NCBI GenBank assembly: GCA_021813435.1
Contig: JAKAKR010000013.1
Location: forward strand, 67,494 to 91,493
Origin: Nanobdellota archaeon
GTDB lineage: Archaea; Nanobdellota; Nanobdellia; Woesearchaeales; UBA9642
Direction: 5' to 3'
DNA: 24,000 nt
Below, piece after piece: positions 10,331 through 17,789 of the stretch. The position numbers were made by a program, and so were the translations under genes. The notes beneath the pieces were generated by a model. That model did not search any database. It was not told the origin of the DNA and worked only from the letters and a program-made list of their open reading frames with translations. Within the stretch, counting starts at the first letter, position 1. Each line of letters begins with the position of its first letter.

Positions 10331-10351
10331 CTGATTGCTCCTTACCGCCAT

Positions 10352-10447
10352 AGCGGGGTAGAGCAGTCAGGAGTGCTCGCAGGGCTCATAACCCTGAGGT
10401 CGCTAGAGGTAAGAAATTACCGGCGAATTCAAATCTAGCCCCCGCTA
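10352..10447 (+). tRNA. Initiator tRNA-Met (CAU) with a 21-nt non-canonical intron in the T arm
   Basis: Acceptor AGCGGGG/CCCCGCT with A1:U72, discriminator A. D arm GAGC-AGTCAGGAGT-GCTC. Anticodon stem CAGGG/CCCTG, with the three G:C pairs typical of initiators, and loop CTCATAA. Variable loop AGGTC. T stem GCTAG ... CTAGC with T loop TTCAAAT. A 21-nt insert separates T-stem position 53 from T54. Confidence 0.85.
10407..10427 (+). other. Non-canonical tRNA intron (about position 53/54; boundaries ambiguous by 1-2 nt)
   Basis: AGGTAAGAAATTACCGGCGAA contains the hairpin GGTAA-GAAA-TTACC. Removing it restores a 75-nt cloverleaf. Confidence 0.7.
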
Positions 10448-10462
10448 TTTTTTCTATTTTTT
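10448..10462 (+). terminator. Double oligo-T terminator after tRNA-iMet
   Basis: ttttttctatttttt follows directly after the discriminator base. Confidence 0.6.
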
Positions 10463-10493
10463 CAGTTCGTTTCATGATTTGTTTCTAGTCATT

Positions 10494-11279
10494 ATGAAAC
10501 AAATCACTCTGCTCACTGGACATTTAGGCGAAAGGCATATCTATAGATGCTGTCTTCTTAAGACAATGCAACGGGATGTATCTGAAAATGATAGAATAAG
10601 AGGTATAAAACTTCCTAAAGAAATTTCTAAAGACTTAGCATATCTCTGCGGGATATTTGCTGGAGATGGAAGCCTTGGATATCGACGAAAAAAGAATGAA
10701 TATTGCCTTAAAGTTGTGGGAAATCCTAAAGACGAGAAAGAATTTTATCATCAAGTTATTGGACCGAAATTCGAGAAAGTGTTCGGAATACTTCCGAGAA
10801 TGAAATACCATGATTCAAAAACAACTTATGGATTTAGTATCTACTCGAAATCTATATATCTATATTTAGTAAATGTTACTGGCTTGCCTTCAGGAGTCAA
10901 ATACCATTCTCTAAAAGTCCCAGATATATTTCTTGATGATAAAAAATTAACAATGGCATTTATTAGAGGAGTATTTGACACAGACGGATGTATATCTTTC
11001 AAGAAAAGGTATCGGACTGAACCCTATTATCCAACAATTAGCGTTTGTTCAAAAAGCAGAAAATTTATAGATGAAATCGCGGATATATTAAAAACTACGC
11101 AGTTAATATTCTCTGGACCATATACATATATGCAAAAAGATATGCGTATTACGCAAGGACATACTACAACGAGCCGCATCTATATTTACGGTCACAAAAA
11201 TCTTCAGATATGGATAGATACAATTGATTTTTATAGTCCTAAACATTTGGCAAAAATACAGAAATACGCAAAATTGTAA
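10494..11279 (+). CDS. Free-standing double-motif LAGLIDADG homing-endonuclease-family protein
   Basis: Two LAGLIDADG motifs: LAYLCGIFAGDGSLG and MAFIRGVFDTDGCISF. The gene is AT-rich compared with its neighbours. The start is uncertain: ATG 10494, or ATG 10566 (MQRDVSEN), which has atctatag about 20-28 nt upstream. Confidence 0.8.
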   Translation: MKQITLLTGHLGERHIYRCCLLKTMQRDVSENDRIRGIKLPKEISKDLAYLCGIFAGDGSLGYRRKKNEYCLKVVGNPKDEKEFYHQVIGPKFEKVFGILPRMKYHDSKTTYGFSIYSKSIYLYLVNVTGLPSGVKYHSLKVPDIFLDDKKLTMAFIRGVFDTDGCISFKKRYRTEPYYPTISVCSKSRKFIDEIADILKTTQLIFSGPYTYMQKDMRITQGHTTTSRIYIYGHKNLQIWIDTIDFYSPKHLAKIQKYAKL

Positions 11280-12633: not shown

Positions 12634-13599
12634 ATGCGTAAACTTGCAAAATTTTCATCCAAAGTATTTCTTGCGCCCATGGCAGGCATCACTGACCCTG
12701 CATTCCGATTGCTCTGCAAAGAGGAAGGTGCGGGGCTTGTTACGACTGAACTTACCAGCATCCACGCCATTGTTGCAAAGGAAAAGCAGTTATCACAGGA
12801 AAACAAGGCAATCACGCAATTTGTCGAATATTCTGAAAAGGAGCGTCCTATCGCAATCCAACTGTTTGGCAATGATATTGATCTTGCAGTCCGCGCCGCA
12901 AAGATTGTTGAACCCTATTTTGACATTATTGATTTTAATATGGGCTGTCCTGCGCCGCATATCACCCAGCAGGAAGCAGGCGCTGCACTTTTGCAGAAAC
13001 CTGTACATGTAAAAGAATTATTTGCACGGCTTGTAACATCCATCGATAAACCCGTCACCCTTAAAGTCCGTGCAGGGATAAAGAGCGATAATCCGCATCT
13101 CTACCGCGATATTGCAAAAATTGCAGAGGATTGCGGAATCGCGATGATTACACTACATGCAAGAACGCTTGAGCAGGGATATTCAGGAACTGCAGACTGG
13201 AAACTTATTGCGGATTTGAAATCCCGGGTCACTATCCCGGTTGTCGGCAATGGCGATATCAAGACTCCTGAGGATGCAAAGCGCATGATGGATGAGACAG
13301 GCTGTGATTATGTGATGATTGGACGGGCTGCGATGGGCAACCCGCAAATATTTTTGCAATGCAATGAGTACATTACCTCTGGGAGATATACGCAGATAAC
13401 AGTGCAGGATAAGGTCAAATCATTTTTGCAGTATCTTGCGTATGCAAGAGATTATGCCATAAGCCCTGCAGCAATCAAGGTGCAGGCAATGCAATTCACT
13501 AAAGGCATTCCCGGCGCGCCGGACTTGCGAAGAAAGATTAGCGCATGCAGGAGTGGAGAAGAGTTCAGAGAACTATTTACACATCATGATGATGTATAA
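12634..13599 (+). CDS. tRNA-dihydrouridine synthase (Dus family)
   Basis: LAPMAGITDPAFRLLCKEEGAGLVTTE...IAIQLFGND...IIDFNMGCPAP (catalytic Cys)...ITLHARTLEQGYSGTADW...IPVVGNGDI...VMIGRAAMGNPQIF. Confidence 0.9.
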   Translation: MRKLAKFSSKVFLAPMAGITDPAFRLLCKEEGAGLVTTELTSIHAIVAKEKQLSQENKAITQFVEYSEKERPIAIQLFGNDIDLAVRAAKIVEPYFDIIDFNMGCPAPHITQQEAGAALLQKPVHVKELFARLVTSIDKPVTLKVRAGIKSDNPHLYRDIAKIAEDCGIAMITLHARTLEQGYSGTADWKLIADLKSRVTIPVVGNGDIKTPEDAKRMMDETGCDYVMIGRAAMGNPQIFLQCNEYITSGRYTQITVQDKVKSFLQYLAYARDYAISPAAIKVQAMQFTKGIPGAPDLRRKISACRSGEEFRELFTHHDDV

Positions 13600-14282
13600 G
13601 AGTCGTTCTTATCCATAATATGCGTTGTTTGTTGAGCAATTTTTCTTCCACCAACAATCGATCCTGCGGTGAGGATAATTGTCCACAAGAATCCTGCACC
13701 CAAACACACCGGCGTTCTCAATTCCTCAGGAAAATACGCATAATTGAGTGTCTGGATAACATTCCATGCAGTAAGTGTTCCAATCAGCGCTATCTTATAA
13801 TTTGCTCCGGGGATATTGTCGATATAGCGTTCTTTAAATTTATTCGTGAACGAGCGCCATCGCTCTTTACATGTTCCAGAATAATTCTTGAATATGCCTG
13901 CATAGTTTTTGAACAGTGCGGTAATCGAATAATCAGATTTTTCACCGACAGTATTATTGACAAAGAAATAACTGTTCATAATGTTCCCGAAAAGATTCGG
14001 GCCTAATGCAGATTTCAGAAAAGGGTTTGCAGAGATATACGCGCCCACTAATTCCCCGGACTGCATGACTGCATCAATAGACGCGCCATAGAACGGCGCA
14101 AGGATTGCAGTATACCGTAATTTCTTTGGATTTATTTTTTTATCGATCATGAGTTGGGAGATCATATCACTTGCAACAAAAGTGAACTCTGCAGTGATCA
14201 TAGAACCGATATGGGGATGTGCTTTCTGAAGCTGCATATACTGATTCCAGACATCTGTCACAAGATTGCTGATATCCATCAT
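13584..14282 (-). CDS. Mpv17/PMP22-family integral membrane protein
   Basis: The N-terminus VWNQYMQLQKAHPHIGSMITAEFTFVASDMISQL resembles human MPV17 as I recall it ([35 protein letters not shown]). The C-terminal WNVIQTLNYAYFPEELRTPVCLGAGFLWTIILT matches the family signature W-x3-Q-x2-N-(F/Y)-x2-(V/F)-P-x3-R-x10-W-x3-L with exact spacing. Start at ATGATG 14282; the longer track ORF extension is non-coding. Confidence 0.7.
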   Translation of the reverse strand: MMDISNLVTDVWNQYMQLQKAHPHIGSMITAEFTFVASDMISQLMIDKKINPKKLRYTAILAPFYGASIDAVMQSGELVGAYISANPFLKSALGPNLFGNIMNSYFFVNNTVGEKSDYSITALFKNYAGIFKNYSGTCKERWRSFTNKFKERYIDNIPGANYKIALIGTLTAWNVIQTLNYAYFPEELRTPVCLGAGFLWTIILTAGSIVGGRKIAQQTTHIMDKNDSYTSS

Positions 14283-14294
14283 ATATCTCTCAAA

Positions 14295-14325
14295 GTAGTA
14301 TTTAGCCGTAGTATTTAGCCGTAGC
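14295..14325. repeat. 13-bp tandem duplication gtagtatttagcc x2 plus a partial third copy
   Basis: Copies at 14295-14307 and 14308-14320, then gtagc at 14321-14325. The repeat spans the stop codon (14315-14317) of the MraZ-like gene and the 32-nt gap before the Mpv17-like gene. Confidence 0.8.
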
Positions 14326-14722
14326 TTTTTGGTATGAAATGCGGCTTGAAATAATCCGCAGTATCCAGCATCTTTTTTTTGTGCACGAGCAGAAAATTTC
14401 CGCAACCATGAACATACGCCGGATCTTGATCTTTCATATCGACCAATACACGATTTTGCGGGTCAAGTTTCCGTCGACTATACGACGGGAAGCTCGATTG
14501 TGGCACAAGTTCTTCAAATGCACATTCAGGGATGATGACAATGCCCCCGGTAAAAACACTATCCAAACTCGCATAAAAATAATCGGACTTATTTACCCGC
14601 GAAATAATCTTGAGTAAATCAGAAGGAATGCTTATTCTACCTTTGGAATCAGTGGAGTACTCTTTGATCCCTGTTAACGGCGCCGGGAATATATTTTTTT
14701 CTGATACATAAATATACATCAT
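14315..14722 (-). CDS. MraZ-like / SpoVT-AbrB double-motif DNA-binding protein
   Basis: STDSKGRISIPSDLLKII (D-x-KGR-x-x-x-P) and a second degenerate copy RKLDPQNRVLVDM, then VHGCGNFLLVHKK. This parallels the two DxxGR half-domains of MraZ. Start at ATGATG 14722, 19-28 nt from a TATA box. The longer track ORF reaching 14908 would overlap rnhB and is rejected. Confidence 0.55.
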   Translation of the reverse strand: MMYIYVSEKNIFPAPLTGIKEYSTDSKGRISIPSDLLKIISRVNKSDYFYASLDSVFTGGIVIIPECAFEELVPQSSFPSYSRRKLDPQNRVLVDMKDQDPAYVHGCGNFLLVHKKKMLDTADYFKPHFIPKSYG

Positions 14723-14740
14723 TTTGTCACCACTCGCAGG

Positions 14741-14750
14741 TTTATAAATA
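14741..14750 (-). promoter_or_regulatory. TATA box for the MraZ-like / Mpv17-like gene pair
   Basis: tttataaata lies 19-28 nt upstream of the ATG at 14722. Confidence 0.55.
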
Positions 14751-14785
14751 TTACGCATTTTTACTGACGCAGGTTTCGTCGTAAA

Positions 14786-14795
14786 CTTTATTAAT
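14786..14795 (+). promoter_or_regulatory. TATA-like box for rnhB
   Basis: ctttattaat lies 21-30 nt upstream of the ATG at 14816. Confidence 0.5.
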
Positions 14796-14815
14796 GACCG
14801 TAATCGCCTGCATAC

Positions 14816-16066: not shown

Positions 16067-17122
16067 TTATTTATATAGTGCATCTATCACGTGTTTATCG
16101 CCCAAATCATAGCATATTGAACGGGTTTCCTTCCTGAAAAACCTTCCTGAATATTCTTTCAATCGTTCTTCTGATGAAATGCCAATATCTGCACATCCGT
16201 AAGTATGCATAAAATCCAGACTCGTACTTCCTGCCGTTAGAATAAATCGCTCATAATTACTATCGTTTTTATCGATACGAACGTTAATTTTTGAATTATC
16301 ATTATCTATTATGAATTTTTTCAAAGCATTTCGAATAGTATCACACTCGATAAATTGGTTATCGACATACCAATGAACATGCTCAGACGTAAGGCTCTCA
16401 GGATAATAATTTTTTTTACCATGAAATTTCCTGTCCTTAATCGTGACAAGAAATTTTGCTTTGTCAATGATGCGGTCAATATTTTTACTTGAAAGGATTA
16501 GTCCTTTTTGCGATGCCTCAAATACCTCAACATAACTTTCAGGACGTACGGACAGATTATCCATGAAATCAGGATGAGAGAATAACTTATTTACTCCTAA
16601 ATCAACATCCTGAGCAGTAAACCCTGAATAGTTCATTAAGTTGTTACGAGTTGAGTCATAGGTCGCATCATACACCATTGAAGAAATTGTTTCAAGATCA
16701 AACGATTCTCGAGGATCTTTTTTTATTGTTGATAATAATAGATACGCCGCACGCATTGTATCAATAAATGAATAGACATTATTACCAATAGCACCAATAT
16801 CAACATAACTATCACTCCATGCAAAAGGAGCAGATAACCTTTTTTGTTCATTAATGACACTTACACCAAAAGTTATAGCAGTTAAATCATCTGTTCGTGC
16901 ATCTCTGACATTAAATTTTATACCCCATTTCGGTATGCACCAGACAGTATATCCTTTTATAGTATCCAGCGAATACAGCGCATTCTGAAAACGATCGGTT
17001 TCTTCAGGCATAATTACAAAATCAGATTTGAGCTTTACTCGCTCGACTGATCCTCGTTTATTTTTTATTTCTACAGGTTTTACTTCATAAGGAACTTTTT
17101 GTAAATCACTGTTTTGTTTCAT
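16067..17122 (-). CDS. Hypothetical protein (351 aa), second gene of an AT-rich ORFan operon
   Basis: Long clean ORF with no family motif I can recognise. Its ATG at 17122 is preceded by GAGGT, which overlaps the upstream gene's TGA with a 6-nt spacer, indicating translational coupling. Confidence 0.7.
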   Translation of the reverse strand: MKQNSDLQKVPYEVKPVEIKNKRGSVERVKLKSDFVIMPEETDRFQNALYSLDTIKGYTVWCIPKWGIKFNVRDARTDDLTAITFGVSVINEQKRLSAPFAWSDSYVDIGAIGNNVYSFIDTMRAAYLLLSTIKKDPRESFDLETISSMVYDATYDSTRNNLMNYSGFTAQDVDLGVNKLFSHPDFMDNLSVRPESYVEVFEASQKGLILSSKNIDRIIDKAKFLVTIKDRKFHGKKNYYPESLTSEHVHWYVDNQFIECDTIRNALKKFIIDNDNSKINVRIDKNDSNYERFILTAGSTSLDFMHTYGCADIGISSEERLKEYSGRFFRKETRSICYDLGDKHVIDALYK

Positions 17123-17131
17123 CAGTTAACC

Positions 17132-17731
17132 TCATACTTGTTTTTCAGTAATTAATGGCATCAGATCGACTACGCTCGGATGACGCCATTCGCGATATGT
17201 TTCATAAAGCGAACGTTTTTCTGCAGGCTGCGGATTGACATCGATGTAAAATCGCATGCCTGTACTACTATTTTCTCCGTGGAGCCTAATTGTTGAGAAC
17301 AGTTGAGATAGTGCAGCATCAGTTTCTACGCGAAACTTTTTTTTATAATCCGCGAAAAGACGGGATAATGAATTCCACTGACACCCGCCAATGCCAGAAT
17401 ATATGCGTTTATCTTTCGAATCCGCATGAACAATAGTGACGGAATATTTCTTAAGGAATTTATCAGATAGTAATGTGTCAACAAGAGTAAAATCCTTGTT
17501 CAGTATTTCAAATTCAGCACAGGGCGCCTGCCCATAAGTGTTGATGTAATCTCCGAGATGAGCAACATATTGATGTGCAGAGATAAGATTGACGTTGTTC
17601 TTCGTCAAGTGACTCCCGATGTCGAGATATTCAAATAATGCGCGAGCACGTTGCCCAAATTGTTCATCTAAATGATAGTCTGACAATTCTTGCACTTGTT
17701 CCATAGTTTTTAACAGAATTGTTTTTTTCAT
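17132..17731 (-). CDS. Hypothetical protein (199 aa), first gene of an AT-rich ORFan operon
   Basis: The ATG at 17731 is preceded by the SD GGTGA at 7 nt (the track ORF begins at GTG 17740). No recognisable family. A loose PD-(D/E)xK-like pattern (FTLVD ... VTIVHADSK) is only a guess. Confidence 0.7.
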   Translation of the reverse strand: MKKTILLKTMEQVQELSDYHLDEQFGQRARALFEYLDIGSHLTKNNVNLISAHQYVAHLGDYINTYGQAPCAEFEILNKDFTLVDTLLSDKFLKKYSVTIVHADSKDKRIYSGIGGCQWNSLSRLFADYKKKFRVETDAALSQLFSTIRLHGENSSTGMRFYIDVNPQPAEKRSLYETYREWRHPSVVDLMPLITEKQV

Positions 17732-17789
17732 AATAATCACCTATTTACTCACTTAATAGTAGTACTGTAATGTTGTATTTAAATATTTG

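Follow-up and report, generated by a model that had tools for sequence, protein, structure and literature searches.

A divergent Mpv17/PMP22-type gene in Woesearchaeales archaea and its pairing with a MraZ-like gene in one genome

A 24,000-nucleotide (nt) stretch of DNA from a Nanobdellota archaeon of the order Woesearchaeales (GenBank assembly GCA_021813435.1, contig JAKAKR010000013.1), called the window throughout, carries a gene for a predicted membrane protein of the Mpv17/PMP22 family (Pfam PF04117). To this family belong the main peroxisomal pore and a human gene linked to mitochondrial-DNA-depletion disease. On sequence evidence, the archaeal gene is a genuine but highly divergent PF04117 member that belongs to a compact archaeal subfamily. 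Membership in the family had been proposed in an initial annotation made from the letters of the window, and it is upheld by sequence and profile, while the fold matches point the same way. The explanation that best accounts for the observations as a whole, to which we assign a probability of about 60%, is that the gene encodes a divergent family member that acts as a five-pass, oligomeric solute channel and forms a small genomic cassette with a gene for a MraZ-like protein.

The gene and the parts of its product, with lengths in amino acids (aa), are located as follows:

13584..14282, minus strand: Mpv17/PMP22-like gene, 232 aa from the ATG at 14282 or 231 aa from the ATG at 14279; stop codon at 13584-13586.
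14142..14261, minus strand: residues 8-47, N-terminal amphipathic helix and first long helix with the [GAS]-D-x2-S-Q motif; D39 and Q43 are invariant.
13938..14024, minus strand: residues 87-115, third long helix, Asn-rich and weakly hydrophobic, with LGPNL-GN-x2-N-x-FF-x-NNT-x-GE; includes invariant alignment columns.
13803..13946, minus strand: residues about 113-160, hydrophilic and K/R-rich, containing two short helices, predicted to be cytoplasmic.
13671..13802, minus strand: residues 161-204, PF04117 (Mpv17_PMP22) signature, W-N-x2-Q-x2-N-Y-x2-F-P...W, spanning the last two long helices.

The second ATG, at 14279, is probably the true start, because the aligned relatives all begin with M-D-[LI]. 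An identical 231-aa form is recorded on five contigs, the longest of 517 kilobases (kb), in a collection of 5.8 billion proteins. A longer, TTG-initiated frame reaching 14405 was considered and dropped, as homologue starts give it no support. The 3' end of the gene overlaps that of the convergent Dus gene by 16 nt. When 27 relatives with 40-77% identity to the window protein are aligned, 21 columns are invariant and another 22 are at least 90% conserved. Such conservation indicates a gene under purifying selection rather than a chance open reading frame (ORF). Three motifs recur among the 117 full-length archaeal members: [GAS]-D-x2-S-Q is present in about 98, the subfamily-specific FFxNNTxG motif of the third helix in 95, and W-N-x2-Q-x2-N-[FY], with Asn in place of Pro after the Trp, in 101.

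Searches of the protein against Pfam with hmmscan, a check proposed in the initial annotation, return PF04117 at residues 161-204 with an E-value of 9.1e-6 and 26.1 bits, just under the gathering score of 27 bits. A six-frame search of the genome gives the same gene 27.9 bits. All 27 aligned relatives match PF04117 (best E 3.6e-8), relatives in a genome sample of the phylum score up to 37.8 bits, and a precomputed match exists for about half of approximately 110 relatives. By these scores, the window protein alone is marginal for PF04117, whereas the family as a whole is clear. No NCBIfam model matches the protein.

The PF04117 model describes only 62 C-terminal positions, so full-length reference proteins were needed for an end-to-end comparison. 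These were fetched from viral and metagenome contigs with a degenerate DNA pattern for W-P-x2-Q-x2-N-F-x2-V-P. The resulting references are unnamed and biased toward W-P...N-F...V-P, and invariance at those positions is partly by construction. Scanning IMG/VR yielded two giant-virus genes that score 61 and 74 bits on PF04117, and 37 relatives were added to form alignment A2. The metagenome scan yielded 80 loci, most with clear Mpv17-type ORFs or exons, and nine full-length ORFs of 176-210 aa make up alignment A5 (9/9 match PF04117, best E 2.4e-27). Reference scores across the two sets range from 61 to 89 bits, and W-P occurs in 36 of 36 viral references, themselves fetched with that motif.

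Profile-profile comparison with hhalign joins the archaeal family to both reference sets. The match to the giant-virus clade has a probability of 97.0% (E 1.2e-10) over 181 columns and residues 7-208, and that to A5 a probability of 97.3% (E 2.7e-11) over 166 columns, with residues 8-203 aligned to positions 2-173 of 179. The aligned span takes in the N-terminal stretch W/Y..Y...(H)P ... [GAS]D..SQ, and residues 8-47 are collinear with the N-terminus of canonical Mpv17/PMP22 proteins. At the other end, the archaeal W173, Q177, N180, Y181 and P185 fall opposite W, Q, N, F and P, respectively, in the motif-fetched references. Controls in which either profile was reversed score only 13-14 (E 0.3-0.4), compared to 75-80 for the true pairs. 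The resemblance that had been noticed at both ends of the protein is therefore far above chance, and homology over the full length is highly probable.

More general searches retrieve only the archaeal subfamily. A filter-free phmmer search with the single sequence among 1.84 billion representatives gives 35 matches, all from this subfamily and none from a eukaryote. A profile search of the 5.8 billion proteins, with E-values up to 10, recovers about 110 clusters that all belong to the subfamily, the weakest at 108 bits, and nothing else.

The initial annotation had asked whether the contig is truly archaeal and whether composition breaks at 13.5-14.8 kb. The host genome (1.41 Mb in 16 contigs, of which contig 9 bears the window) has a completeness of 96.3% and contamination of 0.06%. 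Other genes in the window encode ribosomal protein S7, SMC, two TrmB regulators, an archaeal-type RNase HII (TIGR00729), Dus, PsiE, and a PIN/KH-domain protein that weakly matches the secretion-ATPase type. Composition does not break at the locus: GC content is continuous at 0.40-0.47 across the Dus, Mpv17-like, MraZ-like and RNase HII genes, and GC at third codon positions (GC3) is 0.42 in both genes of the cassette, compared to 0.44 in Dus and 0.52 in RNase HII. In an independent Woesearchaeota metagenome-assembled genome (MAG), an orthologue with 67% identity sits between the same Dus and RNase HII genes, and the order Dus-Mpv17-like-RNase HII-PsiE is kept. The archaeal context is thus confirmed by marker genes, low contamination and shared synteny, and contamination and chimeric assembly are excluded.

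These data also dispose of the wider possibility of an artefact, whereby the match would stem from eukaryotic contamination or a chimeric join at 13.5-14.8 kb, or from unrelated helical proteins that resemble each other by chance or composition. The Pfam score does fall just below the curated cut-off, and membrane-protein composition can inflate profile scores. However, reversed profiles fail to reproduce the match, the identical protein is found on five contigs, another MAG has the orthologue at the same locus, and every one of the roughly 110 relatives with a named source comes from an archaeal MAG. An artefact is extremely improbable and is already refuted by these results.

An AlphaFold2 (AF2) model built from the family alignment is all-helical, with a mean predicted local distance difference test (pLDDT) score of 91.9 and a predicted template-modelling score (pTM) of 0.84. 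Its helices span residues 4-21, 23-47, 52-82, 87-115, 120-131, 138-152, 159-183 and 186-228. When the model is compared to viral protein structures in BFVD, the top two fold matches are M1I2L4, which is unnamed in the tables used, and 'Putative Mpv17/PMP22 family protein [Tetraselmis virus 1]'. These matches have probabilities of 1.00 and 0.97 and target-normalised TM-scores of 0.62 and 0.48 over 180-193 columns. A PDB fold search with the model finds generic helical bundles only (rhodopsins, TM-scores 0.26-0.30), and a PDB sequence search with the family profile gives noise only (UDP-glucose dehydrogenase, E 0.58).

Family-averaged hydropathy has five peaks, at equivalent relative positions in the archaeal and viral reference families. 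Lys and Arg residues, counted over 27 sequences, are concentrated in alternate segments between the helices. Family means are 4.2 for residues 48-56, 6.8 for residues 116-158 and 3.3 for the C-terminal tail, compared to 0.7 for the N-terminus, 0.0 for residues 83-86 and 0.1 for residues 184-186. A five-pass topology with the N-terminus outside and the C-terminus inside would fit this pattern, and the protein is probably an integral membrane protein of that kind. Fly and human MPV17 are likewise predicted to have five transmembrane helices by AlphaFold and DeepTMHMM (PMC10558772). Older predictions gave family members four transmembrane helices, the number also expected in the initial annotation; in the archaeal protein, the count of hydrophobic segments and long helices is five.

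Functional proposals for this protein derive from its eukaryotic relatives. Pxmp2 forms a general diffusion pore of 1.4 nm (PMC2662417), while MPV17 and Sym1 form non-selective channels of 1.6-1.8 nm (PMC6767901). Fly Mpv17 passes uridine, and its conductance is lost with disease mutations (PMC10558772). Loss of MPV17 depletes mitochondrial deoxynucleoside triphosphates (PMC4711891). By analogy, the archaeal protein may be a solute channel, a tentative assignment whose chances we put somewhat below even. It would cross the cytoplasmic membrane five times as an alpha-helical protein, N-terminus outside and C-terminus inside, and would assemble, like Pxmp2, MPV17 and Sym1, into a homo-oligomeric pore with little selectivity among small solutes. 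A polar path through this pore could be lined by the in-helix residues D39 and Q43, a ladder of N96, N100, N103, N109 and N110, and by W173-N174, Q177 and N180. Such a pore might serve uptake or exchange of small molecules in an organism that has a 1.4-Mb genome and probably depends on imported metabolites.

Several observations weigh against this explanation. The single-protein Pfam score is marginal, as noted above, and the sequence and fold searches of PDB found no solved structure of any family member. The Foldseek E-value of the top BFVD matches is weak (0.11). Helices 3 and 4 have mean hydropathies of only 0.61 and 0.55 in the archaeal family, compared to 1.88 and 1.10 in the viral reference clade, and the last helix is the only one to pass the classical Kyte-Doolittle threshold. 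Gene neighbourhoods across about 20 loci are unconserved and give no functional pointer. Finally, the details of channel function are contested for the eukaryotic proteins themselves, and certain members of the family do not act as channels.

In an alternative explanation, the protein is a true Mpv17/PMP22 homologue but not a solute channel. It might instead organise or tether membranes, act in regulation, or be a bundle of helices, soluble or peripheral, for which the last helix is the only anchor. Precedents are the Neurospora WSC protein, which functions in Woronin-body tethering, and MPV17L2, which functions in mitoribosome assembly. The strikingly polar, Asn-rich character of helices 3 and 4, the classically hydrophobic nature of the C-terminal helix alone, and the presence of a gene for a DNA-binding regulator directly upstream would all suit a role of this type. 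It is harder to reconcile with five helices of 25-43 residues located where bona fide members have their predicted transmembrane helices, or with a strong positive-inside charge pattern conserved across 27 sequences. Moreover, the conserved polar residues within helices are what a pore or binding path needs. We consider a non-channel role fairly unlikely.

The distribution of the subfamily is narrow. Relatives occur in four of 41 close relatives of the host genome and, by family profile, in 10 of 401 genomes of the order. PF04117 itself matches 12 of 401 genomes in a sample of the phylum, 11 from the same order and one from the same class. A strict peptide pattern finds 11 loci among 185,579 species genomes, all in Woesearchaeota or Nanoarchaeota MAGs except for one labelled 'Euryarchaeota archaeon SM23-78'. 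None of the control genomes of well-known bacteria and archaea has a match above the PF04117 cut-off. As far as searched, the subfamily of about 110 clusters is restricted to Woesearchaeales-type DPANN archaea, where it occupies about 2.5-3% of genomes. The suggestion that an archaeal member of this family is unusual is borne out by these counts, which make the gene rare among prokaryotes.

The relative P0095 bears the NCBI label 'Nitrosarchaeum sp.' It lies on a contig of 5.5 kb (JAAUVG010000049.1) in which no diagnostic genes or RNAs were found, and the label is probably a binning error rather than a sign of a thaumarchaeal copy. Weak PF04117 matches are also present elsewhere in Woesearchaeales, in a 265-aa ORF (L034, G203:C114; 22.9 bits) and a truncated ORF (L029, G288:C17; 31 bits). 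These ORFs are Gly/Ala-rich and different in character, and tblastn gives no relation to the Mpv17-like subfamily. Recognition of the subfamily as Mpv17/PMP22 is not new, since NCBI's automated annotation already names several relatives 'Mpv17/PMP22 family protein'. No paper was found on the archaeal subfamily, and none in the literature searched combines 'Mpv17' and 'DPANN'.

Genes that adjoin other Mpv17-like loci include those for a HAD hydrolase (three loci), rubrerythrin, IMP dehydrogenase, a DUF835-MarR protein and a cytidylyltransferase. A conserved operon or functional neighbourhood was considered and rejected, as neighbours differ among loci. The HAD-family hydrolase gene adjoins the Mpv17-like gene in three loci that are otherwise different (L023:3270-3986, L025:3173-3904 and L013:823-1470). 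Together, the HAD hydrolase, IMP dehydrogenase and cytidylyltransferase neighbours provide a faint and unproven hint toward nucleotide or phospho-sugar metabolism.

To place the subfamily, a maximum-likelihood tree (LG+C20+F+G4, unrooted) was computed from 31 archaeal, eight giant-virus and 11 metagenomic sequences. The references in it are few, unnamed and skewed by the search motif, and the tree probably suffers from long-branch effects. The archaeal sequences fall into a single clade (100/100 support) whose stem measures about 3.65 + 0.64 substitutions per site, and they are nested in no sampled eukaryote-type or viral group. The very long branch that divides them from eukaryote-type and giant-virus members excludes recent transfer, and an unrooted tree cannot give the direction of any transfer. 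The label 'eukaryote-type', which the initial annotation had attached to the protein, does not fit a distinct and old subfamily that is restricted to Woesearchaeales and separated by such a branch.

Two accounts of the origin of the subfamily can be weighed. In the first, an ancestor of Woesearchaeales acquired, once and long ago, a Mpv17/PMP22 gene from a eukaryote or a giant virus, and this gene then diverged rapidly, was frequently lost and spread laterally among these archaea. The family is near-universal in eukaryotes and its archaeal range is patchy, with the low genome counts given above and only 35 representatives among 1.84 billion proteins, so an old transfer into Woesearchaeales is the more economical reading. 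Giant viruses, which have family members of their own, could have acted as vectors, and the gene occupies a variable genomic spot with GC3 slightly below that of its neighbours. However, the archaeal clade is not nested in the sampled eukaryote-type or viral groups, its stem is approximately four substitutions per site, and the references sampled are few, unnamed and biased by the search motif. We give this account roughly even odds.

In the second account, the root of the family is prokaryotic, in archaea of the DPANN type, and the eukaryotic organelle channels are derived from it. The archaeal clade is monophyletic, is internally old (identities fall to about 25-35%) and is not nested among the eukaryote-type sequences, and genomes of the same order contain further ORFs with weak similarity to PF04117. 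Yet the family is present in only about 3% of genomes of one order, no control genome scores above the PF04117 cut-off, and the unrooted tree, with its likely long-branch effects, gives no direction. A prokaryotic root is accordingly quite unlikely. A broader version is a shade more doubtful still. It holds that the subfamily and the fainter Woesearchaeales paralogues make up an old archaeal superfamily, in which small solute channels go together with small DNA-binding regulators and from which the organelle channels of eukaryotes descended.

The gene directly upstream of the Mpv17-like gene encodes a MraZ-like protein, and the region between it and the divergent RNase HII gene contains candidate control elements:

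14315..14722, minus strand: MraZ-like gene, 135 aa, two AbrB-type half-domains (DSKGRISIP and LDPQNRVLV).
14295..14324, minus strand: 13-nt tandem repeat CTACGGCTAAATA, two copies plus 4 nt, spanning the MraZ-like stop codon and most of the 32-nt spacer.
14723..14815: divergent intergenic region between the MraZ-like and RNase HII genes (alignments A3 and A6).
14741-14748, minus strand: TATA-like TTTATAAA, 18 nt before the MraZ-like ATG.
14782-14793, plus strand: AAACTTTATTAA, before the RNase HII ATG (14816).

Pfam MraZ (PF02381) matches the upstream protein only below cut-off (E 0.013). A structural model of moderate confidence (pLDDT 61.8) nevertheless finds MraZ proteins at all of ranks 1-15 in a Foldseek search of PDB, with E-values of 7.8e-6 to 2.6e-4 and TM-scores of 0.5-0.6. 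A homologue with 27-28% identity is present at the same site in the congener G009, where both motifs are conserved. The earlier description of this neighbour as MraZ-like is thus supported by fold matches and by its two half-domains.

The genus has a backbone gene order of Dus, RNase HII and PsiE, and Dus and RNase HII are adjacent in the congeners G003, G004, G005 and G007. In the host genome (G000), the MraZ-like and Mpv17-like genes are inserted into the Dus-RNase HII junction (window 13584-14815) on the opposite strand. The same junction holds only the Mpv17-like gene in G002 and only the MraZ-like gene in G009, such that four occupancy states exist within the genus. Neither gene needs the other. 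The simplest reading is that one ancestral two-gene cassette with one promoter was followed by loss of either gene.

Sequences in the intergenic region are compatible with this history. The RNase HII-proximal AAACTTTATTAA is common to most of the congeners aligned. On the cassette side, the element TGTYACYACT...AGTTTATAAATATT is common to exactly the three congeners with an insert (G000, G002 and G009) and lies upstream of the first cassette gene in each. From their sequences, these elements are taken to be putative promoters. A scan for sigma-70 promoters and terminators was uninformative for an archaeal host.

The MraZ-like gene is separated from the Mpv17-like start by 32 nt (14283-14314). 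No separate conserved promoter was seen in the repeat and spacer region (14295..14324), and the CTACGGCTAAATA repeat may be a scar of slippage or recombination. Because so little DNA, most of it tandem repeat, lies between the genes, their co-transcription in the host genome is likely. The Mpv17-like gene would then come second in a cassette that is led by a MraZ-like regulator, occupies the variable Dus-RNase HII junction and is transcribed from one promoter of its own. Co-transcription had been suggested in the initial annotation and is plausible for this genome, but the pairing is not conserved: it was seen in this genome only, and G002 and G009 keep one gene each. When about 20 other Mpv17-like loci were searched by tblastn with the MraZ-like protein as query, none yielded a homologue, although so fast-evolving a protein could be missed.

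Other parts of the window have features of their own. A tRNA-Met gene of 98 nt, longer than standard, may contain an intron. After it comes a LAGLIDADG-domain ORF of low GC content, 0.33 (together at 10351-11279), which looks like a mobile homing-endonuclease element. Between PsiE and TrmB, at 16067-17740, are two minus-strand ORFs of 351 and 202 aa with GC of 0.34-0.39, GC3 of 0.25-0.35 and no Pfam match. Further low-GC islands occur at about 8-9.5 kb and 22-23 kb.

The substrates of Mpv17/PMP22 proteins are unsettled, and nothing was found written on the origin of the family. A prokaryotic branch could serve as an outgroup that reveals which residues are truly ancient, such as those of the GD..SQ helix and of W..Q..N[FY]..P. 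The archaeal proteins are small, intron-free and modelled with confidence, and they may be easier to purify for structure determination and bilayer work. The subfamily is also a case in which gene flow between DPANN archaea and eukaryotes or giant viruses can be tested. If it does form a general solute pore, this would bear on how reduced DPANN cells acquire metabolites. These prospects are tempered by the fact that the family name already stands in automated annotation, that the gene is a rare accessory gene, and that its function is proposed by analogy.

Among known systems, the MraZ-like protein is best compared to bacterial MraZ (PDB 1N0E/1N0F, 9QLG and 9SZ7). Both are about 135 aa in length and consist of two AbrB-type half-domains, each with a D-x-x-x-R-type motif. 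Bacterial MraZ is a transcription factor of the dcw cluster. In contrast, neither mraW/rsmH nor division genes follow the archaeal gene: rsmH and fts are absent from its vicinity, and downstream are the Mpv17-like gene and then the convergent Dus gene. The archaeal protein is also fast-evolving, as its low identity between congeners attests.

Giant-virus Mpv17/PMP22 proteins (Tetraselmis virus 1, and the IMG/VR clade of P0134/P0135 with 37 relatives) provide the best fold matches to the archaeal protein and a strong profile match. Both groups carry an insert, which is located between helices 2 and 3 in the viral proteins and before the signature region in the archaeal ones. Unlike archaeal members, the viral proteins have retained W-P and GDxxAQ. 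Their PF04117 scores are 61-74 bits, and they group with eukaryote-type sequences rather than with the archaeal clade. Members of the viral clade (L043:387-1175 and L045:3154-3882 in IMG/VR; P0136-P0172) are about 245-260 aa long with a long hydrophilic insert, and nearly all are unnamed in databases.

The closest comparison is with the canonical family, represented by human MPV17 and MPV17L/L2, mouse Pxmp2, yeast Sym1 and plant PMP22. The architecture is collinear from end to end. In archaeal and canonical proteins alike, an N-terminal amphipathic helix with aromatic-x3-(H)P and a first helix with [GAS]D-x2-[SA]Q are succeeded by three further helices and then by the C-terminal W-x3-Q-x2-N-[FY]-x2-[VF]-P...W. 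The two groups also share five hydrophobic segments and a similar size class. Archaeal members differ in having W-N for W-P, FFxNNTxGE in helix 3 and much more polar helices 3 and 4, and the K/R-rich loop that precedes their signature region exceeds its counterpart in canonical members of 176-210 aa by about 30 residues. Archaea lack mitochondria and peroxisomes, and the protein therefore must reside in the cell membrane rather than in the organellar membranes occupied by its eukaryotic relatives, which is a difference of setting and not of family.

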